DNA of 64,000 nucleotides, taken from an uncultured Methanosarcinales archaeon (GTDB lineage Archaea; Nanobdellota; Nanobdellia; Woesearchaeales; DSVV01). Each line of letters opens with the position of its first letter. Positions within the stretch are counted from its first letter, which is position 1. The notes below the pieces were generated by a model. That model was not told where the DNA came from. It did no database searches and was given only the letters and a program-made list of their open reading frames with translations. Location of the stretch: the NCBI GenBank assembly GCA_964452935.1, contig CAYVNO010000005.1, positions 8,558 to 72,557 of the forward strand, given 5' to 3'. The translations under genes and the position numbers were made by a program. Shown piece after piece: positions 20,996-34,906 of this stretch.

Positions 20996-21394
20996 TTAAT
21001 TTCCCAGGGATAATTTAACCGCTTCTAAAATTCCCTCTAATTGATCATCCTGAATTTCCTTCTCTGACAACGTACGAATCCTATCTCTTTTTTCTTGGGG
21101 AGGAATCACTTCTCGTTCTATTGGTGCAATTTGAATCTCCTCATCATATCCACATCTATGACGATACTTCGTGTCTAAATCTCCCCACCATCTATTATTA
21201 ACAGTAATTCCTTCGTCTTTGTAGGGAGTAGATGCAGAAAGAGCAGCAAGTCTGGCCGCATAATCCTCAACTTTATTACGAAATGTTTCTTGATCATCTT
21301 TTTGAAACGATAAATGAATTGAACGACGCTCTTTATCTAATTCTAAGTATTCACTAGTATGTTCTAATTCGTAAGTTATTTTTAATTTTCCCAT
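20996..21394 (-). CDS. Hypothetical protein (Lys-poor, acidic)
   Basis: 132-aa ORF with no recognisable motif. Confidence 0.5.
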   Translation of the reverse strand: MGKLKITYELEHTSEYLELDKERRSIHLSFQKDDQETFRNKVEDYAARLAALSASTPYKDEGITVNNRWWGDLDTKYRHRCGYDEEIQIAPIEREVIPPQEKRDRIRTLSEKEIQDDQLEGILEAVKLSLGN

Positions 21395-21482
21395 CTTTTA
21401 GTGGTATTGCTGGTTATTTATATATGTTTCTCCCCCCTAATTGGGGAAAAGTATTTAAATGGCATACTTTTCTATATAAAAC

Positions 21483-22220
21483 ATGATAAAAGAATCATTA
21501 AAGAGAATTGGACTAACAGAAGGAGAATGTCAAGTCTATGAAGCATTAGTACACTTAGGAACTTCAAGCACTGGCAAGATTGTAAAAAGAGCAAATATTG
21601 GGAGTTCAAAAGTTTATGAAGTGTTGCAAAGATTACACAATAAAGGATTAGTCAGTCATGTTGTAAAAAATGGTGTAAAGTATTTTGAAGCAACTCCTCC
21701 AGAAAGACTTATTGATTTTTTAGATGAAAAAAAAGAAGAGTTAACTAATGCTCAAAAAGATATTGAGAAGATCATTCCTCTTATTAAAGCTGAGGAGAAA
21801 AAAGCAGATGAAAAGAATCATACGGTAGTCTATAGTGGAATTCAAGGACCAAAGATTGTTTTGAAAGAGATTTTAGAAGCAGGAAGGAAAGGATTTCCAC
21901 ATTTTGGTTTTGGAACAGATACTGATCCATATGTTAAATATCTTCAACATGATCTGAACAAATATATTGAAGAATCTAAGAAGATTAAATTTACTCAAAA
22001 ATTGATATTTATTAAAAGGTTTAAATCACCAAATACAGAAGCAAAAATAAGATATTTATCTAAAGAATATTTGTTTCCGGTTAGGACAATGATTTATGGA
22101 GATAAAGTTGCGATTGTTGATTTTTCAAAACCAATAACTACAATAGTGATTGAAAATAAACAGATTGCTAATTCTTATAAGAATCATTTTGATTTGTTGT
22201 GGAAAATAGCAAAGCCATAA
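21483..22220 (+). CDS. TrmB-family transcriptional regulator
   Basis: N-terminal wHTH LGLTEGECQVYEALVHLGTSSTGKIVKRANIGSSKVYEVLQRLHNKGLVSHV plus a C-terminal effector-like domain. Confidence 0.75.
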   Translation: MIKESLKRIGLTEGECQVYEALVHLGTSSTGKIVKRANIGSSKVYEVLQRLHNKGLVSHVVKNGVKYFEATPPERLIDFLDEKKEELTNAQKDIEKIIPLIKAEEKKADEKNHTVVYSGIQGPKIVLKEILEAGRKGFPHFGFGTDTDPYVKYLQHDLNKYIEESKKIKFTQKLIFIKRFKSPNTEAKIRYLSKEYLFPVRTMIYGDKVAIVDFSKPITTIVIENKQIANSYKNHFDLLWKIAKP

Positions 22221-22330
22221 TTTTTATTCCCGTCGTTCGTTTTATTTTAGCCCCCGAAAAAATTGAAATTAACTATTTTTATGCAAACCCCATTCTCTAA
22301 ATTTATCCACTGAAAATAGTTTTATTTCTA

Positions 22331-22858
22331 TTAAACATCTTCCATCTTAAACAACTGCTTTGAATACTCTTTGTCTCTCATGAACTTGATCAAATCTTGG
22401 TGAGAACTAGCAGATCTTCCAACATCTTCCAGAACAACCATAGTTTCAGTGTTGCCTATACCTTCAATCTGTGCAATTTTAGTTACAAACCTTTTCAACT
22501 CTCTTATGTCCCTTGCCCTTACTCTCAACAAAATATCATTCTTTCCAGTTAGAGTACTTATACAAGAAATAAAAGGATACTTAGCAAACTGTTTAGCAAT
22601 ATCGACTTGAGTGGTTTGATTTCTTTGTACGTGTTGATAGTGTGTATTTATCAAAACATAAGCAACAACATACAAACCAATTTTTTCATGATCTATCTTA
22701 GCAGAGTAACGTTTAATCACACCTTTCTTTTCCATTCTTTTGATCCTGTTCATTACAGTCATGGTAGGAATATTAGTTATTTTAGAAATATCTCGATGTG
22801 ACATTCTAGCATTGTCTATCAACACTTCCAATATTTTGAAGTCCTTTTCATCTGGCAT
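22331..22858 (-). CDS. Lrp/AsnC-family transcriptional regulator
   Basis: HTH FKILEVLIDNARMSHRDISKITNIPTMTVMNRIKRMEKKGVIKRY plus a RAM-like C-terminal domain. The start overlaps the upstream stop (TAATG). Confidence 0.85.
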   Translation of the reverse strand: MPDEKDFKILEVLIDNARMSHRDISKITNIPTMTVMNRIKRMEKKGVIKRYSAKIDHEKIGLYVVAYVLINTHYQHVQRNQTTQVDIAKQFAKYPFISCISTLTGKNDILLRVRARDIRELKRFVTKIAQIEGIGNTETMVVLEDVGRSASSHQDLIKFMRDKEYSKQLFKMEDV

Positions 22859-23979
22859 TATATTCTCCTCACAAATGCTCTTCTTCCATCTGAAGTTACA
22901 TGTAGATTAATATGGGCATTTTCTCCTCTATCAAGTTGTTTATCAAAAATTTCGTCATCATCTGGAGTGAGTACATCATCACCATCATGAATTATTGACA
23001 CTTGAGGTTTAAACACCTTTGACCTTTGCAAATGTCCAATAGTTAAATCAGATAATAATTTGTCAAAATTACCATGTCCTACCATTTGGACTTTTCTTTT
23101 TCTTGCTACAATCTCAGGAAAGATCACATTATAGTGGAAATCGTATGAACCATCCTCTCCCATAGTATCAAATTCCCATTCCCCTAAATAACAAACAGTG
23201 ATTTTACAGTCAATTCCTTCAGGAGGGGTTGCTCCTCTAACAAAAGGAACTTCAAATTCACCTTTTTCAGGGTCTCTATCTAAATTAAATTCTGAAGGAG
23301 AAAAGTCTCTTGTTCTATGGTATTGTAAAAAATAATTTTTATCACCAGCAGTTATAAATTCCATAATTGGACAATGATTAGGGTCAAAATTATCTAAATT
23401 TCTGATTTGTTCATAAAAATCAACAAGTTGTTGTAATCCATTTCTTTGTTGTTCAGGAAGATATCCAAACATAAGTGTAACATGAGCATTTTCTATTGTA
23501 ACATAACTTCTAACTCTGCCAAATTTTTGTTCATCGTTAGTCATTACATGGTATTTTCCTTTTATTGAAGAATCGGCAACAACAGCTCTACCAAACCCTT
23601 TTAATCTTTCCCAAATTGAGAAACGAGTTTCTTGTTTAAATGATTCCTTATCTATGTCTAGAAGATCACAATATTGTTCAAAATGTGGTGAGTCTTTAGT
23701 TTCTTCATACTGAAAGTATCTACCTTTTATCTCTTCAGCATCTGTTGATCCTCGATATCTTTTTTGTGAGAGTTTTGGACTATCTAATAAACCAGAAACA
23801 CCATCATACTCTTGTGTATGTTCTGATCTTAATAATATTGCTCTATGAGATCTTCTAGCCTCAGCTAAACTATCAAACCTTCTCGTAACAAGTATTCCAT
23901 TCTGTTCTACATAATCAGCAATTGTTCTTTTCGGTTGTCCATTCAACCTACTAGGATCTGCAGTATAATAATCGCCCAT
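22858..23979 (-). CDS. Hypothetical protein, weak resemblance to PEP/pyruvate-binding (PPDK_N, ATP-grasp) domain
   Basis: AILLRSEHTQEYDGVSGLLDS resembles the VRSSxxxED...FAG segment. It is Lys-poor and cotranscribed with the Lrp gene. Confidence 0.55.
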   Translation of the reverse strand: MGDYYTADPSRLNGQPKRTIADYVEQNGILVTRRFDSLAEARRSHRAILLRSEHTQEYDGVSGLLDSPKLSQKRYRGSTDAEEIKGRYFQYEETKDSPHFEQYCDLLDIDKESFKQETRFSIWERLKGFGRAVVADSSIKGKYHVMTNDEQKFGRVRSYVTIENAHVTLMFGYLPEQQRNGLQQLVDFYEQIRNLDNFDPNHCPIMEFITAGDKNYFLQYHRTRDFSPSEFNLDRDPEKGEFEVPFVRGATPPEGIDCKITVCYLGEWEFDTMGEDGSYDFHYNVIFPEIVARKRKVQMVGHGNFDKLLSDLTIGHLQRSKVFKPQVSIIHDGDDVLTPDDDEIFDKQLDRGENAHINLHVTSDGRRAFVRRI

Positions 23980-24520
23980 GGTACTATTCGAGAATGAAGA
24001 ACTAATATAAAAAGATTATGCTTTTATTTTAAAGAAATGTACCAAAATAACCCCTTAATCTGATACAAACTTATCAAATTGTACAAATATTTGACCAACA
24101 GTTATTAATAGTTGTATACCATTATTACCTTTAAAAGAGGGGCTAAAAAGAAGGTGAGACTATAACACTCCTTGCATCAAAAAATGCAAGGAAAGAGGTA
24201 CACCAAAAATGAAAAAACTAAGTTTTATGCCCCACCTAAACAATTCTGAACTGGGAACAACTGCTAAAATAAACAGTCATAAATCGAGTGAACATTTATA
24301 TATTATGAGAACTATTCTTATTATAGGAAAGGTGGAGAATATGACAAAAAACAACTTAAATCAATTCTTGAAATGTATGGTTAGATTGAAGAATGATGTC
24401 CTGAGATGTTTAACTCCATTAAAACGGTACACAGTAAGGGTAGACATCATCTAAAAGCAATAACTAACCAAAATATATTTTATCTTTTTTTAGCATAATA
24501 AATTCGAGGGGGTAATTGAA

Positions 24521-24766
24521 ATGCTAGTTCCAACCCAGTTGGTCACCAAAAAAATCATATCTGTTAATGGAAAAGTCTTTTACAATGATAGAAGACGGAG
24601 AATAGACCTAAAGAGACCTATAAGAGATATGTTTGAAGGAGAGGGTATGGAAATTTTTTATAAGATGGAAATATGTTTGGGTAATAAAAGAACAATTGAA
24701 AGAATTAAGGAATTAGCAGACAAAAATGTCACGCCAATAATAATGTATTTTATGGTGAAAAAATGA
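24521..24766 (+). CDS. Small hypothetical protein translationally coupled to TFB
   Basis: 81-aa ORF. GGGGG/TAATTGAA precedes the ATG, and its stop overlaps the TFB start (ATGA). Confidence 0.4.
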   Translation: MLVPTQLVTKKIISVNGKVFYNDRRRRIDLKRPIRDMFEGEGMEIFYKMEICLGNKRTIERIKELADKNVTPIIMYFMVKK

Positions 24767-25563
24767 ATAAATGCCTAGAATGTGGAAGCAAAGATCAACA
24801 CCAAGTACATACATCTGGGGAACTGGTCTGTAAAAAATGTGGGCTTGTTCTAGATGACATGCCGTTTGAAACTAACCCTTATGTTAGTGATGCAGAGAAA
24901 AGAACAGCAGATATCCCTTATTTAGCTAGAGCTGGAACTCAGAAGATGAATGGAAAATTCATAAAAGACAGCTGGTTGATGTCGACAAGGGAAAAGAACA
25001 TGAGAATTGCTAGACGCAGATTAGGGATAATGAGTTCAAAACTTGATCTATGCAATAAGGTAAAGAAAGAAGCTTATTTCCTTTTCAAGCTTGCAGTAGA
25101 TAGAGAACTAAATGTTGGAAGGGACAATTTAAGTATTTTATATGCTTGTGTTTATGCAGCATGTAAAATTCATCAAATTCCAAAGACTCCGTCCGAGATA
25201 ATCTCATATTCAAGCCTTTCAAGAACTAAATTGTTAAGAGCTTATAGCTTGATTAAGAAAGGTTTAGGGCTTAAAATTGGGATAACTAATATGGATGATT
25301 TTATCCCAAGATTCAGCTCAAGATTAGGGCTAAAACAAACAACAATAACAAAAGTTTATGAGATCATCAATAAATTAGAAGGAAGCCATGTCATTGCAGG
25401 AAAACATCCAAAGACCATTGTAGCTTCAGCTATTTATCTGGCTACAATCATTAAAAAGGATACAAGAACCCAGAGAGAAATAACTAATGCTACTGGAGTA
25501 ATAGAAGTTACAATAAGAAAAAGAAGTAAAGAGATTGCTGAAGAGTTGGGGGTAGAGGTTTGA
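24763..25563 (+). CDS. tfb: Transcription initiation factor IIB (TFB), short form
   Basis: Zn ribbon CLECGS...CKKCG followed by two cyclin-like repeats. At 266 aa it is shorter than typical TFBs. Confidence 0.85.
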   Translation: MNKCLECGSKDQHQVHTSGELVCKKCGLVLDDMPFETNPYVSDAEKRTADIPYLARAGTQKMNGKFIKDSWLMSTREKNMRIARRRLGIMSSKLDLCNKVKKEAYFLFKLAVDRELNVGRDNLSILYACVYAACKIHQIPKTPSEIISYSSLSRTKLLRAYSLIKKGLGLKIGITNMDDFIPRFSSRLGLKQTTITKVYEIINKLEGSHVIAGKHPKTIVASAIYLATIIKKDTRTQREITNATGVIEVTIRKRSKEIAEELGVEV

Positions 25564-25665
25564 TTTTATTAATTTTAATTCCGGTGCTTCTTTCATACTT
25601 TCATTAATGGTAATTAAATGATAGAAACACAAGAGTTATAAATAATTTACTTAACATTTTTAGAA

Positions 25666-26385
25666 ATGGAAATATTTACACTTGTAATTTTAGTAATTGC
25701 AATCTCCTTGGGATTTTTTTTAAGTTCCATGATGGGATTTGCTGCTGCTTTGATAGCTCTTCCTCTCTTATTATATGTTCAAAATATACAAGAAGCAGTA
25801 GCATTGATTTCTGTTTTTGTATTTATTTTTAGTATTATCAAAATTTATCAACTTGGAGCAATTATGGACAAAAAAGTTATTGCTCAAATGCTTATTGGAA
25901 TAATTGGTGGTCTTTTAATTGGTATTTATCTATTAAAATATGGTAATCCTCTCCTACTGAAAAAACTACTTGGTGTTTTTGTCTTACTTTATGTTGGATA
26001 TTCATCTATAAAACAAACTCAAATTAAAATATTTAAAAAATTAGGGATCTTGTTTGGTTTTATAGGGGGAATTTTTTCAGGAATGTTTGCTACAGGTGGA
26101 CCTTTATATGTAACTTATTTACATAACAAATTGAAAAATGTAGAGGTATTTAGAGCAACAGTAATTGGAACAATGGGCATATCCAATTTTATAAGAATCA
26201 TATTATTAACCTATAATGGTTTATTACCCAAAGAAATTTTAATTAATTCTATCTATATATTACCTTTCTTTTTTATTGCAATATATTTAGGGCAAAAAGC
26301 TTATAATAGAACTAATGAAAAAACATTCAAAAAATTAATATTAATTATTTTGGTTATTTTAGGTATTAAATTGATAATATGGTAA
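25666..26385 (+). CDS. TauE/SafE (DUF81) family anion exporter
   Basis: About 7-8 TM helices, MGFAAALIALPLLL and the internal repeat GGIFSGMFATGGPL. Confidence 0.7.
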   Translation: MEIFTLVILVIAISLGFFLSSMMGFAAALIALPLLLYVQNIQEAVALISVFVFIFSIIKIYQLGAIMDKKVIAQMLIGIIGGLLIGIYLLKYGNPLLLKKLLGVFVLLYVGYSSIKQTQIKIFKKLGILFGFIGGIFSGMFATGGPLYVTYLHNKLKNVEVFRATVIGTMGISNFIRIILLTYNGLLPKEILINSIYILPFFFIAIYLGQKAYNRTNEKTFKKLILIILVILGIKLIIW

Positions 26386-26404
26386 TTTCTTTATCATACT
26401 TTTC

Positions 26405-26581
26405 TTAAAAATAATCTTTTCTCTTCGGATCATCTTTCTTCATCTTCTCAAGTATGGCTGTTCTGATGTAATGAGATACTGAAAAGCAATCATTGGTCTG
26501 TTTCTTTAATTCCTTCCATAATTTATTAGGACAATTAAAGCTTCTTCTTTCAGACCTCATTGTTTCATATTCAGTCTCCAT
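26405..26581 (-). CDS. Ribbon-helix-helix (CopG-like) protein
   Basis: The start is chosen at METEYETM. The beta-strand RRSFNCP is followed by helices LWKELKKQT and SVSHYIRTAILEKM. Confidence 0.6.
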   Translation of the reverse strand: METEYETMRSERRSFNCPNKLWKELKKQTNDCFSVSHYIRTAILEKMKKDDPKRKDYF

Positions 26582-26756
26582 CTTGACACACCTTCTCATA
26601 TATTTTATTGATTTTCTCTTCCATGGAGAAAGACATAAACAAAGCAAATCTGATGTAATCAGATTTTTTCATAAATCCAGCAGATTTAGCTTTGGCTATC
26701 AAAATCTGTTCCTGCTCTGGAGATATCTTGACAGTTACAACTTTTGTCTTTACCAT
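26571..26756 (-). CDS. Ribbon-helix-helix (MobC/CopG-like) protein
   Basis: The start is chosen at MVKTKVVTVKISPEQEQILIAKAKSAGFMKKSDYIRFAL. The longer track ORF adds an implausible N-terminus. Confidence 0.6.
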   Translation of the reverse strand: MVKTKVVTVKISPEQEQILIAKAKSAGFMKKSDYIRFALFMSFSMEEKINKIYEKVCQDGD

Positions 26757-27154
26757 ATAGATTATATGGTTGCCATAATAAAAAGGGAGTTTGGTTACAA
26801 AAGAGTACACTTTTTGAGGTACATTTGCGGTAACACAAATGGTAACACAGGCATATGTCACTAAGAAATGGACACGTAGAGAAATGCCCAGATTTTCTCT
26901 ATTTGCTCTGAAATGCCTGAATTTAGCCAGCTCACAGATTGTAGAAAATAAGGACAAGATTTATATAATCCAAAGACCTTAAATCCTTTATAAACAATAA
27001 AAACGAGCTCAAACGCTTGGAAAAGCCATGTGAGCCTAGTTGGTGCTGAGTCCGTGCGTAAAAAGTTTTGATGTAAGATTACGCATTAGGGCTTCTGGGT
27101 GCAGAATTCTAGGGTTTCGGGCTGTTAACCACTTAAAAGGGGTTACATACCGAA

Positions 27155-27829
27155 ATGTTTATATATAGACATATATTACCTTTAAATATGGCAAACGGAA
27201 GTACAACTCTAAAAGATCTTGAAGCAATGATAGGATCATCAGATATGAATAGATTAGACAGAGCTGTAAAAGGCCTACCAGAATCAGAGAGAGAGGAAGT
27301 TTACAGATCTTTCCTAAAACTGGGGGGATTGGTTGAAAAAGATGGTTTAACAGGAGTTTATAATAGACTTAGATTTAACGCAGACTATAAAAGAGAGACT
27401 TCAAGAGTAAAACGAGCAGAAAACAGAGGAAAAGATGTCACACTTATAATGATGGATATTGATAATTTTAAAGATTACAATGATACTCATGGCCATCCAG
27501 CAGGAGATGAAGTATTAAGAAAAGTGGCTCAATGCTTAGATTCGTGTATAAGAGACCAAGATAGTGTTTATAGATATGGTGGAGAAGAGTTTGCAGTTCT
27601 TGCTACAGACACTACAACAGAAGAAGGATTTGCAATCGGAGAAAGATTAAGAGCAGCTGTTGAAGAGCTAAGTTTAGGTACTCTTCCAGGTGTAACAGTC
27701 AGTGTAGGAGTCTCAAACTATAAAGGTACATGCAGCGAACCAGAACAATTAGTAGAATTCGCAGATCAAGCATTATATGCAGCAAAAAATGCAGGAAGAA
27801 ATAGAGTAAGAGTTTATGGCGGAAAATAA
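27155..27829 (+). CDS. Stand-alone GGDEF-domain diguanylate cyclase
   Basis: GLTGVYNR, MMDIDNFKDYND, HPAGDEVL, active-site GGEEF (nt 27578..27592), RDQD at the PleD-like I-site spacing, and ADQALYAAKNAGRNRV. The start may instead be MANGST at 27188. Confidence 0.9.
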   Translation: MFIYRHILPLNMANGSTTLKDLEAMIGSSDMNRLDRAVKGLPESEREEVYRSFLKLGGLVEKDGLTGVYNRLRFNADYKRETSRVKRAENRGKDVTLIMMDIDNFKDYNDTHGHPAGDEVLRKVAQCLDSCIRDQDSVYRYGGEEFAVLATDTTTEEGFAIGERLRAAVEELSLGTLPGVTVSVGVSNYKGTCSEPEQLVEFADQALYAAKNAGRNRVRVYGGK

Positions 27830-27832
27830 TTC

Positions 27833-28183
27833 TTAAAAGCTAAGAACATTTACTCCTAACAACATTAGAGCTATCATAAATGCAGCCACTAACACAAACT
27901 GTAAAACCCACGCTAATATTGCTCTTATCCAACCAATATCAAACATAAATCTATACAATAACAATAATATAATAAAAGAAGCAATTCCAGAGAAGATTCT
28001 TAACTTTGCATCTAAGAAACCATTAACTAAACCCATTAATAAGTTAATAGCAACCACTTTCAACAAAGAACTCCTTCCACCTAATAACTTCACAGCAATA
28101 TTCAGAGGAATAGCAGAAACAACCAAAACAACAACCCACCAAATCATCTGTGTAATATCCATAAGAATTCTAAAAACATTCAA
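27833..28183 (-). CDS. Small 4-TM membrane protein
   Basis: 116-aa hydrophobic ORF. Confidence 0.55.
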   Translation of the reverse strand: MNVFRILMDITQMIWWVVVLVVSAIPLNIAVKLLGGRSSLLKVVAINLLMGLVNGFLDAKLRIFSGIASFIILLLLYRFMFDIGWIRAILAWVLQFVLVAAFMIALMLLGVNVLSF

Positions 28184-28210
28184 TTATAAAAATGTTTTGG
28201 AAAACAATGT

Positions 28211-28993
28211 TTATTTACCCAAAGAAGTCAAATAACTCCATAAACGGGATAAACCAGACTGCTTTTTCTCTTCAACTAGAACTTCTTCCCCTTCAACTAA
28301 AACAGGATCTCTCTTATAATCATCTGCTTGAACTCTTGTAATGGTTGGAATGACTTCCATTCTAGAATTATTATAATTATATTTAACCTCTACTTTAATT
28401 CCATCACCAATGTCATAAGTTCTGAATTCAAACAAATGTGGTTCATGTCCTTCATATTCAACATCAGAATCTTGATACATTTTCTCAAATCCTTGTTTAA
28501 AATTTCCTTCCCCTGTTTCTATTAACCTTTCAAGTATTTTTGCAGTAACTCCAGCATCAGTATACATTATATCTCTATGTTGAACAAAAACTAGTCCTTC
28601 AAGATCTGCAGGTTTATCTCCTATCTGATCACCAATCACAATCATATTTGAAAGAGCCTCATCATCTGAGAATCCAACAGCCTCTGCAACTTTCTTATAA
28701 CTTTTCCCACCAGGAACCTCAGAAACAGTTTCTCCTCCAAAAACATGACTAAAATAATCTGTCAAACCTGTTCTTTCTAAAACAAAATTAGCATAATCTG
28801 TCGAACCTGATGTTGTAATCACATGTTCATATCCCTCGGATGATAATGAGGATAATAATTCAGTTAACCCAAATCTTAAAGAAGTAGGTTTCATCCCTTC
28901 TTCAACTTCTATGCCCATGAACTCATACTTGATTCTGCCAAAATACCCTAATGTTTCATCTAAATCCCAACAAATTACCTTCTTATCCCCCAT
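28211..28993 (-). CDS. HAD-superfamily hydrolase with C-terminal extension
   Basis: Motif I CWDLDETLG, motif II VITTSGS, motif III GGKSYKK, motif IV VIGDQIGD. Confidence 0.7.
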   Translation of the reverse strand: MGDKKVICWDLDETLGYFGRIKYEFMGIEVEEGMKPTSLRFGLTELLSSLSSEGYEHVITTSGSTDYANFVLERTGLTDYFSHVFGGETVSEVPGGKSYKKVAEAVGFSDDEALSNMIVIGDQIGDKPADLEGLVFVQHRDIMYTDAGVTAKILERLIETGEGNFKQGFEKMYQDSDVEYEGHEPHLFEFRTYDIGDGIKVEVKYNYNNSRMEVIPTITRVQADDYKRDPVLVEGEEVLVEEKKQSGLSRLWSYLTSLGK

Positions 28994-29053
28994 ATTTGAG
29001 GGTAATAATACTTATTTTATTAATGTTTTGGAAAAAAGAAATAAAAAAATAAA

Positions 29054-30757
29054 TCAACCACAACTTCCAGCTGGGACACTTTCAACTTCAACATCACTCA
29101 AATCAACATCAGCACATTCTTCAGGAGCTGTATCAAATGAATTACAAAGTCCTTGCATATATCCTTCTGCTGATCTGTCTCCATTAAACTTATCACCATC
29201 AATAAACACAGTTGGTGAACCTGAAACACCAAGTGAATTTCCTAACTCCAATTCAGCAGCTAAAATATCCATTGCTTCGTTTTCTTCACAATCAGATATA
29301 ACAGTTGTATCCAATCCTAAATCACTAGCAACTCCTTCCCAGCACGAATCTGCATTCTGATAATTGCATTTATCATTCATTTCTAAAACAAACTCAAACC
29401 ATTCATCCATTCCCATGTGTTTTGCAACACAAAACTCTCTAATATCTTGGTTTAGTTCTTGTACTCCATGCATTGAACAGTATTTACTCTCATCATCTAA
29501 GCAATAGTCTGGTCCACCACCATTGTAATTACTATAAATTACAAAATGTGGATTAAAGTCTGCACTATTTTTCAAAGCTTGGTAAACAGGTTCAATTGCT
29601 TCTTCTGCAACATTACCATATGGGCAATAACTCATCACAAAGAAATCAATTTGTGGTCTGTTATCTCCCTTTGTAACACCAATTGATTCATAAAATGAAT
29701 TCCTTGCATCTTCACTAACATAATATGAAGCACCAGTTACACTATCCCTTAACTTAAATGCATCACCAACCATCTCAAACGCTCCTCTTAAATCAGGAAC
29801 ACTCTGCCAGGTATCAGTGTTAACCACATTGCCATCAAAGATATAAGCAGGTAATAACGTGATACCTAAAGACTCAACTAACTCTTGTCCTTCTGCATCA
29901 TTTACATCTACCTCTCTCATGTCGAGATTCTTAAAATAACCAGCACTAACAGCAACAATCTGAGTTGTATCACATGATCCGCATTCTTTATCATTCAAAA
30001 CAATAAATTCAACTTCCTCATCTTCAACATAAACACATTCTGAATTCTCACATTTCCCAACTTTATCAGATTCTGCTGTACAATCTGTGTCTGCTGTACA
30101 ATCTGGAATATCATCACAAGCAGGATTTGAGTCCATGTAACTACACAAAGCTCTTATCAAAGATGTTGCATCCCTTCCACCTTGGTACGGTTGTCCATTA
30201 ATATACATTGTAGGACTTCCTCTTGCATTTGCTTGGTTACTTTTTGAAATAGATACTCTCAAAAGTTCTTCTCCTTCATTATCAAAACAATCCATTATCT
30301 TTTCTGCATCCATTCCATTTTCTTCTGCACAACTATCTACAGTGCCTTTTAAATCTTTCATATCTTTATTTTGACAAAAGATAAAGTCAACATATTCATC
30401 AGGATAATATTCCTTTGCACATAACTGAATTATATCTCCATCAATCTCTTGTTGTCCATGCAAACTCTGGAAAACTCCTTCTCTTTCACTTGCAATAAAA
30501 TCAATATCAATCTTGACACTATCACCTAAAACCTCAATAACATCAGGTAACGAATCTTCTACTTGGACTCCATAAGGACACTGACTCATAGCATACAAAT
30601 CAAACTCAACTACATCTCCTTCAACTGCAGTATCACCCATCATTCCAATGAATGCATTAGTAGAATAAATTACATACCCTAAGAATACAACACCAATTAT
30701 AACTCCTATTGTCCAATAGAGAGCACTCTTTTTCAACACTATCTCTTTTTTATCCAC
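29054..30757 (-). CDS. Membrane-anchored protein with three DsbA/thioredoxin-like domains
   Basis: N-terminal TM anchor. CPYG motifs (MSQCPYGVQ, MSYCPYGNV) and three GSPT loops (RGSPTMYINGQ, LPAYIFDGN region, SGSPTVFIDGD). It ends in PAGSCG. Confidence 0.7.
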   Translation of the reverse strand: MDKKEIVLKKSALYWTIGVIIGVVFLGYVIYSTNAFIGMMGDTAVEGDVVEFDLYAMSQCPYGVQVEDSLPDVIEVLGDSVKIDIDFIASEREGVFQSLHGQQEIDGDIIQLCAKEYYPDEYVDFIFCQNKDMKDLKGTVDSCAEENGMDAEKIMDCFDNEGEELLRVSISKSNQANARGSPTMYINGQPYQGGRDATSLIRALCSYMDSNPACDDIPDCTADTDCTAESDKVGKCENSECVYVEDEEVEFIVLNDKECGSCDTTQIVAVSAGYFKNLDMREVDVNDAEGQELVESLGITLLPAYIFDGNVVNTDTWQSVPDLRGAFEMVGDAFKLRDSVTGASYYVSEDARNSFYESIGVTKGDNRPQIDFFVMSYCPYGNVAEEAIEPVYQALKNSADFNPHFVIYSNYNGGGPDYCLDDESKYCSMHGVQELNQDIREFCVAKHMGMDEWFEFVLEMNDKCNYQNADSCWEGVASDLGLDTTVISDCEENEAMDILAAELELGNSLGVSGSPTVFIDGDKFNGDRSAEGYMQGLCNSFDTAPEECADVDLSDVEVESVPAGSCG

Positions 30758-30789
30758 ATTAATCCCCTCCTATTTATATAAAATTATGA

Positions 30790-30889
30790 TCCCCGCGGCC
30801 GGACTTGAACCAGCAACACGTCGGTCTACAGCCGACTGCTCTGCCAATGCTCCTTATCTTGAAACAAGATAAGTTTGAGCTACGCGGGG
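30790..30889 (-). tRNA. tRNA-Tyr (GUA) with about 26-nt insertion (intron) in the D-loop
   Basis: Hand fold: acceptor CCCCGCG/CGCGGGG with C1-G72 and A73, D stem GCUC/GAGC, anticodon arm GUCGG-CUGUAGA-CCGAC, T arm GCUGG-UUCAAGU-CCGGC. The D-loop holds an extra hairpin, CUUAUCUU-GUUUC-AAGAUAAG. A TTTAAATATA box lies about 25-35 nt upstream. Confidence 0.8.
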
Positions 30890-30948
30890 TATTTATATAG
30901 GGACTACTCTGCCTATATTTAAAGGTTTCTAACTATTTTATAAGTGGC

Positions 30949-32373
30949 TCACTTCTTTGTACTTGCTCTATTAGAATAAATCTTAACAAACTTTCCTTTC
31001 TTATTCTTAAACTTAACAATCGTTGATGGCAATTTATAACTGCCAATAACTTCCATCTTAGAATTCAATAAGTAAGTTATTATTCTCTCTTCATGTGGTT
31101 CAAGATGAGCTAACTGCCATCTTATAACAGTTCCTTCTCTTGCATGTCTTATAACTTTCTCTGGTTTTAATGTTCCTACCTCAAACTCTTTCTGTAACTC
31201 AGTTAATTGAGGCAGTTTATCTATAATCCTAACATTCTCAACTAGTTTAGATGTTCTATTTTTTACATGAATTAACACCTTCACCTTGCTTCTCTTCTTT
31301 AAAATCATTGCCTCCTTTTTCACAACAACAGGGCTTCTAAAAACATAATACCCAACAATACCTAATGTAATCAACAATAACGCAATAATTATCGGCCTAT
31401 AATTCCTAACAATCTCAATTTCAACAGATTCATCAGCAGGAATTACTAAGGACCATTTAAAATATCTCTTCCCATTTATCTCAACAACTTCAGGATCTAA
31501 ATTTGTAGAAGATAATAGCTGCTTCAACAGAGTAGTCTCAAATAAAACCTCTTCTTCTGCTTCAATATTCCCATTATTTGTATAAACTAAAATTTCCTCT
31601 ATCTTAAACAAAGACTTTCGTATTTCAGGTAAACTAACAACAACATCTACAAATCCTCCAATCTCAATCTCTTTTCTTAACGGAGAATAAGTTTTAGACA
31701 TTGCTCTTACTGTTATTATCAACATATCTGTAACAGGTTCTTGATCAGAATTATATACAATCTCAAAAACTTCTGTCTTTCTTTCCAAAGGTGCTAAAGT
31801 GGTAACTCTATTTGCTTCAAATAAATCACTCATAATATCAATTTCAAGATCTGTAATATTCAACATATTCCTATTTATCAGATTAACCTTTAACTCAACC
31901 ATACTCCTAGGATCAATCTCTTCAGGAATATCAATATCCATATTCAAAGAAGGCAAATATCCTCCGTATGTAGAACCTTCTGATGTAAATAAAAATGACA
32001 TATTAAACAATGTCTCTTCTCCTGTATTTTTTGATTTAAGCATTACAGTATAAGTGTATTGGGCCCTCGGAGCATCACTTACAGGAGAAATCTTAATAAC
32101 AGATGTCACCTCAGAATTAGCAGGCACATCAATACCAGAAAGATGAGTTAAAGGGTCTGTCTCAACACTCCATCTAGGGTCATCTAAGAATATAATATCT
32201 AACTCTTCAGCACTATAACCAAAATTTACAATATTTACATTAAATTCAGCAGTCTCCCCTAGTTTTATAACATCATTCACAGCCTCAACACTCACACCAA
32301 TCTCTGCCAAAGCTATACTGGAGAATAAACTAATCACTAATAAGAATAACAATATCTGCTTAAAAACCTTCAT
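30949..32373 (-). CDS. Secreted/membrane-anchored beta-sandwich (CARDB/NEW3-like) protein
   Basis: Signal peptide, beta-rich repeats, and an internal TM (IIIALLLITLGIVGYYVF). The function call is weak. Confidence 0.55.
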   Translation of the reverse strand: MKVFKQILLFLLVISLFSSIALAEIGVSVEAVNDVIKLGETAEFNVNIVNFGYSAEELDIIFLDDPRWSVETDPLTHLSGIDVPANSEVTSVIKISPVSDAPRAQYTYTVMLKSKNTGEETLFNMSFLFTSEGSTYGGYLPSLNMDIDIPEEIDPRSMVELKVNLINRNMLNITDLEIDIMSDLFEANRVTTLAPLERKTEVFEIVYNSDQEPVTDMLIITVRAMSKTYSPLRKEIEIGGFVDVVVSLPEIRKSLFKIEEILVYTNNGNIEAEEEVLFETTLLKQLLSSTNLDPEVVEINGKRYFKWSLVIPADESVEIEIVRNYRPIIIALLLITLGIVGYYVFRSPVVVKKEAMILKKRSKVKVLIHVKNRTSKLVENVRIIDKLPQLTELQKEFEVGTLKPEKVIRHAREGTVIRWQLAHLEPHEERIITYLLNSKMEVIGSYKLPSTIVKFKNKKGKFVKIYSNRASTKK

Positions 32374-32428
32374 TAATCCACCTCTTAGCTATATATTCTT
32401 TAATATACTGATATATATAGTTTTTGTT

Positions 32429-34906
32429 TCAAACTAGAACTCTACTATTGTGCTCATTCTTAGTAACTCTAATCACACTATCAACAAAACTCTCTATCTT
32501 ACTCTCATGACTTACAATAACTACTTGTTTCATACCCAACTCTTCAAGCACATCCCTCACCTTGTCTAGCTGGTCTGTGCTAAAACCATCAGTAGGTTCA
32601 TCAAGAATTATAATGCTCTTAGTATTAATTGTTGTAATAAACTCATTAATGACTTTATTTAAAGATAATCTATAAGCTAGCGCAACAGATGTCTTTTCCC
32701 CTCCACTCAAATCTCCCACTAATGTCTCATATCCGTTCTGCACTACTAAAGGGGTAAATGTTTCATCTAATCTAACATTAATAGTCTCATCCTCCATCAG
32801 AATATTAAACCAGTTCATAAATAAATCGTTAAACTCTCTGTGAATCTTTACCATAACATGTTTCTCAATCGTATCCATCAATTTCACAAAGAAATTATCA
32901 ATCCAATTAATCAGTTGCATGATATAATCTAACTCTTCTTTTTGTTTATCCAATTCCACTAGCTGAATCCTTAATCTCTCAATATTCTTCTCAACTGACT
33001 CGCTCTCCTTTAAAATTTCTGCCCGAGATATCTCCAACTCTTTCTCTTTCTTCATTATCAAACTAAACTTTTCCTTAAACTTCTTTACTTTCTCTCCAAC
33101 ATCTCCATAATTTTTTATATCTCTCTTTAAATCATCTCTTTTATTATTACACTCTTCAATATTTTTATTTATCTCTGTTAGCTCTCCAAGAATAGAATTT
33201 TTCAAACCATTTTTCTCTCTCAACAAATTAATTAAATTATTCTTCTCTAACTCTTTTTGTAAGTAATCTCTTAACACCGACAACAACTTTTTATCTTTCT
33301 CAAGTTTATTATTTAACTCATCAATATTTACTTTCTCTAACACATTAATCTCATTCTCTAACCCACTAATCTTCTCATTCACGTCTTTCAAAATCTCTTG
33401 TTTATCTGAAACCTCTTTACTTATCTCCTCAATTCTCATAATCCCAGACTTCAAGACTTCACACTTCTTCTCACATTCAATTATTTTATCTAATTTACTC
33501 TTCACAACACAATGTTTTTCATCTAAATCAGTCTTCTCTTTCTGAAATTTATCTAAATGAAACTTTGCATCAGTTATTTTATTTTCTTCACTATTTTTTA
33601 TTGAAAACTTATGTTCATCATTAACCTCCCTCAAACACAGCGGACATTTTTCCATAGAAGTAATTTTATCTTTTAACTCTGTGGCCTGTTGAATCTTCAA
33701 CCCATACTCACTTACCCCCTTCACAGCGATCTTTAATTTCTCTTCAGTCTCACTAATCTCTCTTAAAATATCTTCTTTATTCTTCAACACTTCTTCAAAC
33801 TCATTTAATAACTTTTTTTTCTCAGAAATATCAGGAATCTTACCTAACTTCATATTAACTTCTTCATCTAACTGAAACTTTTGTTTCTTTAGATGGGCAT
33901 GTTCTTTTCTAACTTCTAAATTTTTCTTATTAAATTCATTTATATCGTCCATAAACCTTTCAACAGACTCCTCAATCTCTTTTATATCTCTCTCAGTAGG
34001 TTTTTCAAGAACAAACTCTGCTAACTTCTCATTCAACTCCCCAATCTCACTATTAATTTTCTCAAGATTCTTATCTTTTGCCTGTTTCTGTTGATTTAAC
34101 GAGTTAATGTTATTATTTTCCACCTCTAACTTATTCTTCAAACTATTCAATAACTCTAATTTCTCCTCCACACTCTTTAATCTCTCCTCTTCTTGTTTTA
34201 TATTATCATTAATCTCTCCTAACTCCTTATTAACTCTCTCTAACCTTTCTTTTGAACTCCCAACATTCTCCTCTAAGCCCTCTTTTTCTGTCTTAAAAAC
34301 ATCATAGTTTACAAGCTTTGAATTAATAATCTTGGCCTTTGTTTTCAACTCCCTCATTATAAAAACAGCATTCTCTCTAGTCCTCTTGTATTTATCAATA
34401 TTAAACACATTTCTTAACGTATCCAACCTTGTGTTTGTATCATCTGTTAATATCTTTTTCATCTCTTCTTGGGGAGTAAAAACAGTATATCTATAAACTA
34501 AATCTTTCCCTTTAGAAACAATATCTGACGGATAACCTAATAACTCTAAAACTCTTGACTTCAATTCAACAGCAGTTGCATCTATCTTTCTTTCATCCAT
34601 TATCAAAAATCCAGAATCCTGTTTAACACTATCTTTTGATCTTTTTAACGACCGATTGATTATAACTTTCTTCTCATTTATCTCTGCAGTTAACTCAACA
34701 AATCCATCGTTTGTTCCATTCCTCAACAACGAAACTCCTGATAAATCTCCCCTCTTTATACCAAACAACGCAAACTCAATAGCTAAAAGAATGGTGGTCT
34801 TCCCACTTCCAATATCTCCTGATAACAAGAGAGAACCATCTGGAAAAACTATTGTTTCGCTTGTATAAGAACGAATATTATAGAGCTTCAAGGAAATTAT
34901 CTTCAT
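32429..34906 (-). CDS. rad50: Rad50/SbcC-type DNA repair ATPase
   Basis: Walker A GDIGSGKTT, long coiled coil with CxxC zinc hook (MEKCPLCLR), signature LSGGE, Walker B IIILDEPT. Confidence 0.85.
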   Translation of the reverse strand: MKIISLKLYNIRSYTSETIVFPDGSLLLSGDIGSGKTTILLAIEFALFGIKRGDLSGVSLLRNGTNDGFVELTAEINEKKVIINRSLKRSKDSVKQDSGFLIMDERKIDATAVELKSRVLELLGYPSDIVSKGKDLVYRYTVFTPQEEMKKILTDDTNTRLDTLRNVFNIDKYKRTRENAVFIMRELKTKAKIINSKLVNYDVFKTEKEGLEENVGSSKERLERVNKELGEINDNIKQEEERLKSVEEKLELLNSLKNKLEVENNNINSLNQQKQAKDKNLEKINSEIGELNEKLAEFVLEKPTERDIKEIEESVERFMDDINEFNKKNLEVRKEHAHLKKQKFQLDEEVNMKLGKIPDISEKKKLLNEFEEVLKNKEDILREISETEEKLKIAVKGVSEYGLKIQQATELKDKITSMEKCPLCLREVNDEHKFSIKNSEENKITDAKFHLDKFQKEKTDLDEKHCVVKSKLDKIIECEKKCEVLKSGIMRIEEISKEVSDKQEILKDVNEKISGLENEINVLEKVNIDELNNKLEKDKKLLSVLRDYLQKELEKNNLINLLREKNGLKNSILGELTEINKNIEECNNKRDDLKRDIKNYGDVGEKVKKFKEKFSLIMKKEKELEISRAEILKESESVEKNIERLRIQLVELDKQKEELDYIMQLINWIDNFFVKLMDTIEKHVMVKIHREFNDLFMNWFNILMEDETINVRLDETFTPLVVQNGYETLVGDLSGGEKTSVALAYRLSLNKVINEFITTINTKSIIILDEPTDGFSTDQLDKVRDVLEELGMKQVVIVSHESKIESFVDSVIRVTKNEHNSRVLV

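Follow-up and report, generated by a model that had tools for sequence, protein, structure and literature searches.

A predicted stand-alone diguanylate cyclase gene behind a conserved promoter element in a Woesearchaeota genome

The GGDEF gene and its predicted product

We analysed a window of 64,000 nucleotides (contig CAYVNO010000005.1 of assembly GCA_964452935.1) from the genome of an archaeon of the order Woesearchaeales, and focus here on a gene for a GGDEF-domain protein (27188..27829, + strand) that encodes 213 amino acids plus a stop codon. The gene stands at the junction of two gene blocks. The left block comprises two genes for 81-aa proteins, a gene for archaeal transcription factor B (TFB), a TauE-like gene and two overlapping genes for small ribbon-helix-helix (RHH) proteins, and ends in a conserved intergenic block. 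The right block comprises genes for a 116-aa membrane protein, a HAD phosphatase and a DsbA/GILT protein, followed by further genes, and is mostly syntenic with a relative (G004) in which the HAD gene is unmatched.

The open reading frame (ORF) matches the Pfam GGDEF profile PF00990 with an E value of 1e-43 (149.4 bits against a cut-off of 23.8; profile positions 3-161 of 161) and TIGR00254 with 162.2 bits (cut-off 37.4). A first-pass annotation of the window had reported an ORF at 27155-27829 (+) with an intact GGDEF domain. The ORF and its domain (residues 62-217 of the 224-aa form that starts at 27155) are confirmed, but the true start is most likely the ATG at 27188. A TATA box (TTTATATATA, 27158..27167, +), conserved at the end of a shared element in 14 loci of relatives, lies 21 nt before this ATG. 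Homology to relatives with different downstream genes crosses the extension that begins at 27155 and ends at 27167, just after the TATA box. Because the conserved box and the end of homology fall in or at the in-frame extension (27155..27187, +), this segment is most likely promoter DNA. The 213-aa product was called identically by gene callers in four metagenome assemblies. The spacing of TATA box and ATG 27188 fits a leaderless archaeal transcript, and thus the mRNA is probably leaderless. Residues are numbered below from the Met at 27188.

The protein consists of an N-terminal helical region (residues 1-51; 27188..27340, +), a presumed dimerising stalk assigned from predicted secondary structure and alignment with the stalk of WspR, and a GGDEF catalytic domain that extends from DGLTG (residues 52-56) to approximately residue 208 (27341..27811, +). 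The sequence motifs named in the first-pass annotation were all found where it had placed them. DIDNFKDYND (residues 90-99; 27455..27484, +) holds the metal-binding Asp and the guanine-contacting Asn, and HPAGDEVL (residues 103-110; 27494..27517, +) includes Asp107, the guanine-specificity residue. RDQD (residues 122-125; 27551..27562, +) forms the RxxD inhibitory site (I-site) and is separated by exactly five residues (SVYRY) from G131, the first residue of the GGEEF active-site hairpin (residues 131-135; 27578..27592, +). AKNAGRN occupies residues 199-205. The region before the domain gives no Pfam match, in line with the earlier statement that it holds no recognisable sensor domain.

The DxLT motif, D90/D92, N98, D107, RxxD, GGEEF and K200/R204 are in register with GcbC (5euh), WspR (3bre) and the Idiomarina phytochrome cyclase (6et7) in phmmer alignments. 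In an alignment of 41 sequences (A3), D52, D92, K95, N98, D99, G106, D107, R122, R129-F135 and K200 are invariant, and D125 of the I-site is conserved in at least 90%. R153, within IGERLR, is a residue that we take to be a further I-site Arg, the counterpart of R390 in PleD.

The AlphaFold2 model (mean predicted local distance difference test score 87.9) has helices at residues 8-17, 20-27 and 32-51, followed by the GGDEF fold. The top Foldseek matches in the PDB are all diguanylate cyclases with probability 1.00, namely GCN4-WspR (3i5c), DosC (4zvf), 3ign, PleD (2wb4) and DgcB (6ttr). Probability 1.00 was reached for more than 50 solved cyclase chains, with root-mean-square deviations of 1.9-3 Å over approximately 155-165 residues, and the N-terminal helical region can be aligned to the stalk of WspR (residues 21-208 of the query on 144-335 of 3bre). 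With WspR (3bre, 3i5c), DgcB of Caulobacter (6ttr) and SiaD (7e6g), which are among the best Foldseek and phmmer matches, the protein shares a helical segment that leads straight into the GGDEF domain, an RxxD I-site and GGEEF. Unlike WspR and PleD it lacks a receiver (REC) domain, since no match to PF00072 was found in the protein. Scores against the NCBIfam equivalogs are far under the cut-offs for SiaD (142 against 290) and PleD (151.5 against 474). The N-terminal helices, in contrast to those of the other cyclases with a stalk or coiled coil, are specific to a Woesearchaeal family.

Some GGDEF enzymes, termed Hypr, produce cyclic GMP-AMP (cGAMP), and a Ser in place of Asp in the xxGD specificity motif marks such enzymes, for example GSU1658 (PMC13725321). 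The first-pass annotation had considered a different nucleotide product, and the absence of a recognised receptor or phosphodiesterase for cyclic di-GMP (c-di-GMP) from this genome would be in keeping with an enzyme that makes 3'3'-cGAMP, cyclic di-AMP or a linear product. However, the specificity position is the guanine-type Asp107 (HPAGD) and not the Hypr Ser, and Asn98 is retained. Likewise, none of 20 proteins from archaeal metagenome-assembled genomes (MAGs) has the Ser signature, and those tested behaved as diguanylate cyclases (PMC13725321). Another messenger is thus highly improbable, and c-di-GMP is the expected product because D107 and Asn98 are kept and the Hypr Ser is absent.

Taken at the level of sequence and predicted structure, the gene is probably that of a stand-alone diguanylate cyclase which is native to a Woesearchaeota (DPANN) archaeon and competent for catalysis (we estimate a probability of about 0.7). 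In the proposed mechanism, the N-terminal helical stalk (residues ~8-51) would join two monomers, each GGEEF site would bind one GTP-Mg, and the dimer would condense both nucleotides to c-di-GMP. Output would be limited by binding of the product at R122-D125 of the RxxD site, together with R153.

Residence in the archaeal genome and origin of the gene

GGDEF genes are typical of bacteria, and the genome is a MAG of 49 contigs (1.66 Mb, 90% complete, 0.76% contamination). A bacterial fragment could therefore have been misjoined or misbinned into it. However, a 12.3-kb contig from the Joint Genome Institute is 99.99% identical to positions 21188-33481 of the window and includes TFB, TrmB and AsnC-type neighbours, and three more independent assemblies show the same sequence through both gene boundaries. 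The TFB (TFIIB) gene (24763..25563, +; PF00382, PF08271) lies 1.6 kb upstream, and the sequence closest to it in the genome collection (85% identity) comes from a MAG named 'Candidatus Woesearchaeota archaeon'. Other Woesearchaeales share the promoter block that precedes the gene, and single-contig complete genomes of the phylum also carry GGDEF genes.

The composition of the gene is that of its host, which speaks against the chimeric contig that the first-pass annotation had asked to be checked for. The GC content of third codon positions (GC3) is 0.17, compared with a genome mean of 0.24, and the gene ranks at the 68th percentile among 1204 genes for synonymous-codon likelihood, with AGA used for 17 of the 18 Arg codons. 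The overall GC content of 37% is owed to amino-acid composition. Tetranucleotide distances of 2-kb windows over the gene fall between the 8th and 33rd percentiles of the genome. Misassembly and contamination are excluded or made very unlikely by the four identical assemblies, the codon use and the tetranucleotide composition, and a misjoined or misbinned gene is effectively refuted. The gene had also been described as Lys-poor. The Lys content is indeed 5.6% against a genome mean of 8.8%, but the deviation is weak (just the 24th percentile); the high Arg content (8.5%, 96th percentile) is a real compositional feature.

The nearest homologue among 5.8 billion proteins, the protein itself excluded, is at most 53% identical. 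The GGDEF domains of 49 relatives match the protein at 29-48% identity, and no orthologue was found among 61 relatives from the same family and order. An alignment with a protein of one genome of the same family (G023) is full-length, covering residues 11-210 at 38% identity. The first ~45 residues (LKDLEAMI...LDRAVKGLPESEREEVYRSFLKLG) align with the N-termini of this and three further proteins of the family (G010, G012 and G027). In a maximum likelihood (ML) tree of 98 GGDEF domains, the protein, these four archaeal proteins and 15 short bacterial ones form a clade with support of 94/95. The short bacterial proteins (179-197 aa; PF00990, weak PF24898) are stand-alone GGDEF proteins that resemble the archaeal one in identity (42-51%), domain limits and the helix immediately before the domain. 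They differ in that they lack its ~45 first residues, and their genes usually lie beside genes for PilZ-PatA_N or Pkinase-GAF proteins, whereas no PilZ is encoded in the archaeal genome.

The first-pass annotation had suggested an acquisition from bacteria; a recent one is not supported, given the host-like GC3, codon and tetranucleotide values and the top identity of 53%. We read the data as pointing to a subfamily that the protein shares with four or more other genomes of its archaeal family and that is sister to the family of short bacterial cyclases. An exchange between the domains, in either direction, would be old because the archaeal subfamily with its shared N-terminal helices is sister to the short bacterial family.

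Several observations weigh against a native and functional cyclase. The sister of the protein in the ML tree is the group of 15 short proteins (ultrafast bootstrap 99, SH-aLRT 80) and not the archaeal ones; a forced clade with the four archaeal proteins costs 8.4 log-likelihood units and is simply not rejected by the approximately unbiased (AU) test (p 0.33). In the closest relative genome (L008) the slot of the GGDEF gene holds a DUF2937 gene, and the gene is thus not conserved at this spot. Searches of the 1.66-Mb, 90%-complete genome for EAL (PF00563), HD-GYP/HD_5 (PF13487), PilZ and MshEN domains found none. Among receptors, the searches covered PilZ, MshEN and the c-di-GMP-I riboswitch (RF01051); for the riboswitch, the best match in the genome reached 21.8 bits, below the gathering score of 35. 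A cyclase with neither turnover nor readout would be odd, though the genome is just 90% complete. According to PMC13725321, c-di-GMP has so far been detected in no archaeon. Finally, we infer rather than observe that the N-terminal helices hold a dimer together and that the two RHH proteins regulate the gene.

The position of the protein in the tree would also fit a separate history, in which this lineage gained the gene on its own from bacterial short cyclases of ~180 aa, as cargo at the edge of an island with type IV secretion system (T4SS), TFB and RHH genes, and independently of the GGDEF genes that its archaeal relatives carry. Five genomic contexts of the short proteins were examined, and each is bacterial, with genes for PilZ-PatA_N, secretin, SPOR, VanY and Pkinase-GAF proteins nearby. 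The lack of an orthologue among the relatives would be expected, as would the variable content of the slot after the conserved promoter, which holds an orphan gene in G039 and a REC-like gene plus another GGDEF gene in G011, besides the DUF2937 gene of L008. However, the best bacterial identity is the 53% noted above, the N-terminal 45 residues match the four archaeal proteins and are missing in the bacterial ones, and an archaeal clade is not rejected by the AU test. As the gene fully matches its host in codon and tetranucleotide use, any transfer must be old. We consider such a separate acquisition unlikely, and favour a native cyclase that belongs to an archaeal subfamily.

Cyclases and their partners across the phylum

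The first-pass annotation had started from the premise that GGDEF proteins are rare or absent in archaea. This does not hold for the present lineage: GGDEF domains score above the Pfam cut-off in 46 of the 61 relatives and, across the phylum, in 191 of 401 sampled genomes (154 of 281 genera). The positive genomes include single-contig, 100%-complete ones, many of the ORFs are ~190-250 aa long, and multiple copies per genome are frequent. Sidorov et al. (2026, Mol Microbiol, PMC13725321) described GGDEF proteins in archaeal isolates and on 20 MAG contigs, mainly of DPANN archaea, noted several short 'GGDEF only' proteins among them, and presented assays in Salmonella and E. coli in which some of the proteins acted as cyclases. 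They called archaeal GGDEF genes occasional and single-copy (PMC13725321), unlike the frequent and often multi-copy state in our census.

Common and already characterised archaeal homologues had been named at the outset as something that would refute the first-pass view of this gene. This is largely the situation found, because GGDEF is frequent in the phylum and active archaeal cyclases have been reported (PMC13725321). A stand-alone archaeal cyclase is an already known kind of protein, and the present gene is one more case. Compared by description with the DPANN 'GGDEF-only' proteins of Sidorov et al., it shares an archaeal (DPANN) origin judged from flanking genes, a canonical GG(D/E)EF motif and other signature residues, an Asp where Hypr enzymes have Ser, a short N-terminal extension that could not hold a sensor domain, and models nearest to PleD, 3ign and similar structures. 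It differs in that, as far as the text shows, it is not in the set they studied.

Domain searches confirmed the earlier statement that the window encodes no EAL, HD-GYP or PilZ protein. Among the 61 relatives, HD-GYP is the usual partner: HD_5 scores above the cut-off in 24 genomes and is sometimes fused to GGDEF. The other partners are nearly absent, with EAL in two genomes (both GGDEF fusions), PilZ in one and MshEN in one. No HD_5 was found in 25 of the 46 GGDEF-positive relatives, and an 'orphan' cyclase is thus a common state in the order; more than half of the GGDEF-positive genomes, the present one included, have no recognisable phosphodiesterase. Since neither a c-di-GMP phosphodiesterase nor a receptor is recognisable in the present genome, downstream signalling would have to use unrecognised components.

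Fusions of GGDEF and HD_5 within a single ORF were seen in G025 (C228, C234), and GGDEF-EAL fusions in G022 (C30) and G034 (C4). G025 has eight GGDEF, five HD_5 and one MshEN matches, and may be a mixed bin (5% contamination, 290 contigs).

A stand-alone cyclase with no sensor domain, in a variable region near a mobile-element-like island, could conceivably be part of anti-virus signalling, either a cyclic-oligonucleotide-based antiphage signalling system (CBASS), as the first-pass annotation had proposed, or another cyclic-nucleotide defence, or could be a non-catalytic scaffold or receptor. Such defence systems would be marked by a CD-NTase or known defence cyclase beside an effector. No PADLOC model matches the GGDEF gene or five neighbours, which speaks against a CBASS-like role. 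No effector-like gene adjoins it; the neighbours are the 116-aa membrane protein, the HAD phosphatase and the DsbA/GILT protein. A degenerate receptor is disfavoured because all catalytic residues are intact. We find these roles barely credible. A role in symbiont-host signalling, also raised in the first-pass annotation, is speculation.

So far, GGDEF proteins of archaea have been shown to be active in heterologous hosts only (PMC13725321). For the question of whether archaea make and use c-di-GMP, the present gene offers a clean, small (213 aa) and sensor-less test object, but it is one among many. The more useful outcome is the census, with GGDEF in about half of the genomes of the phylum and the partner counts given above, which bears on two questions left open in PMC13725321, the co-occurrence of phosphodiesterases and the identity of receptors.

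We also observed weaker GGDEF-like signals. ORFs of ~340-360 aa in G005, G008, G010, G014, G016, G018, G022 and G025 give recurrent weak GGDEF matches (profile positions 5 to ~100, E 1e-4 to 1e-9) and may form a conserved palm-domain family of their own within this archaeal family. Giant ORFs with a weak to moderate GGDEF-like or palm-like segment were found in the own genome (8738 aa; C24:22513-25884, L002) and in two relatives (9921 and 10066 aa; G001:C81 and G009:C7). The segment scores 18.7 bits in the 8738-aa ORF, where it is the sole other GGDEF-like signal of the genome, and 37-40 bits in the giant ORFs of relatives.

The promoter element and neighbouring genes

The intergenic block upstream of the gene (26940..27167) is 84% identical to that of L008, above the identity of the flanking coding DNA, and is present as a single copy, with no second copy in its own genome. 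The last 45-110 nt before the TATA box recur in 27 of 401 genomes of the order, ahead of unrelated and mostly orphan genes. Immediately before the TATA box lies an element with dyad symmetry (GGTTTCGG..CCACT-N4-..GGTTACATACCGAAAT; 27112..27157, +), the 3' arm of which places CCGAAA at the position of the B recognition element (BRE). In the element sequence, GGTTTCGGGCTGTTAACCACTTAAAAGGGGTTACATACCGAAAT, the outer arms TTTCGG/CCGAAA are invariant in 11 copies; the inner arms have a CCACT-N4-AGTGG-like form and show a few two-sided changes. No Rfam family, tRNA or att site was found upstream of the GGDEF gene, and a 16-nt T4SS promoter element is absent there. The dyad was also considered as an RNA structure and rejected: with an unfavourable covariation term (+0.36) and an outer stem that does not vary, pairing was not demonstrated.

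In four genomes the dyad element is accompanied by a divergent pair of small RHH genes. In the window this pair consists of a gene for a 61-aa NikA-like RHH protein, divergent from the GGDEF gene (26571..26756, - strand; weak PF21983 match), and an overlapping gene for a second small RHH-like protein of 58 aa (26405..26581, -). Neither has a paralogue in the own genome, and the pair and the intergenic block recur together in L008, G011 and G039. We infer that the dyad is an operator-like palindrome that overlaps the BRE-like CCGAAA and is possibly bound by the neighbouring RHH proteins. Control of the cyclase would then probably be mainly transcriptional, as suggested by the lack of a sensor domain, and would act via the BRE/TATA promoter, the conserved dyad element and the adjoining RHH pair.

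Extending this proposal, c-di-GMP could be a working messenger in this Woesearchaeal lineage, with its synthesis switched transcriptionally by the dyad operator, promoter and RHH pair at the edge of the T4SS-like/TFB island. The receptors would be of a new kind, given that the genome lacks PilZ, MshEN and the class I riboswitch. We hold this at long odds; if true, the messenger would be tied to host attachment or DNA transfer.

A direct repeat, GGTAACACA-N3-GGTAACACA, is located upstream of the RHH genes at ~26829-26849 and could be their own operator.

On the other side, the convergent gene for the 116-aa membrane protein (27833..28183, -) has its stop codon 3 nt from that of the GGDEF gene. 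In G004 (L111, C1:224500-241500) the gene for a homologue of this membrane protein (55% identity) immediately precedes a non-orthologous 421-aa GGDEF gene in the same orientation, and the adjacent DsbA/GILT block is syntenic with that of the window. In G011 (L086, C12:70000-85000) the module of TFB, RHH pair and intergenic block is found again. Behind it come a REC-like gene, a 402-aa GGDEF gene unlike the present one, ArsR and IscS/IscU, and, 4 kb further on, an HD/HD_5 gene; this locus may act as a compact c-di-GMP module. Around this junction, three genomes of the family thus carry GGDEF genes from different subfamilies, by function or by chance.

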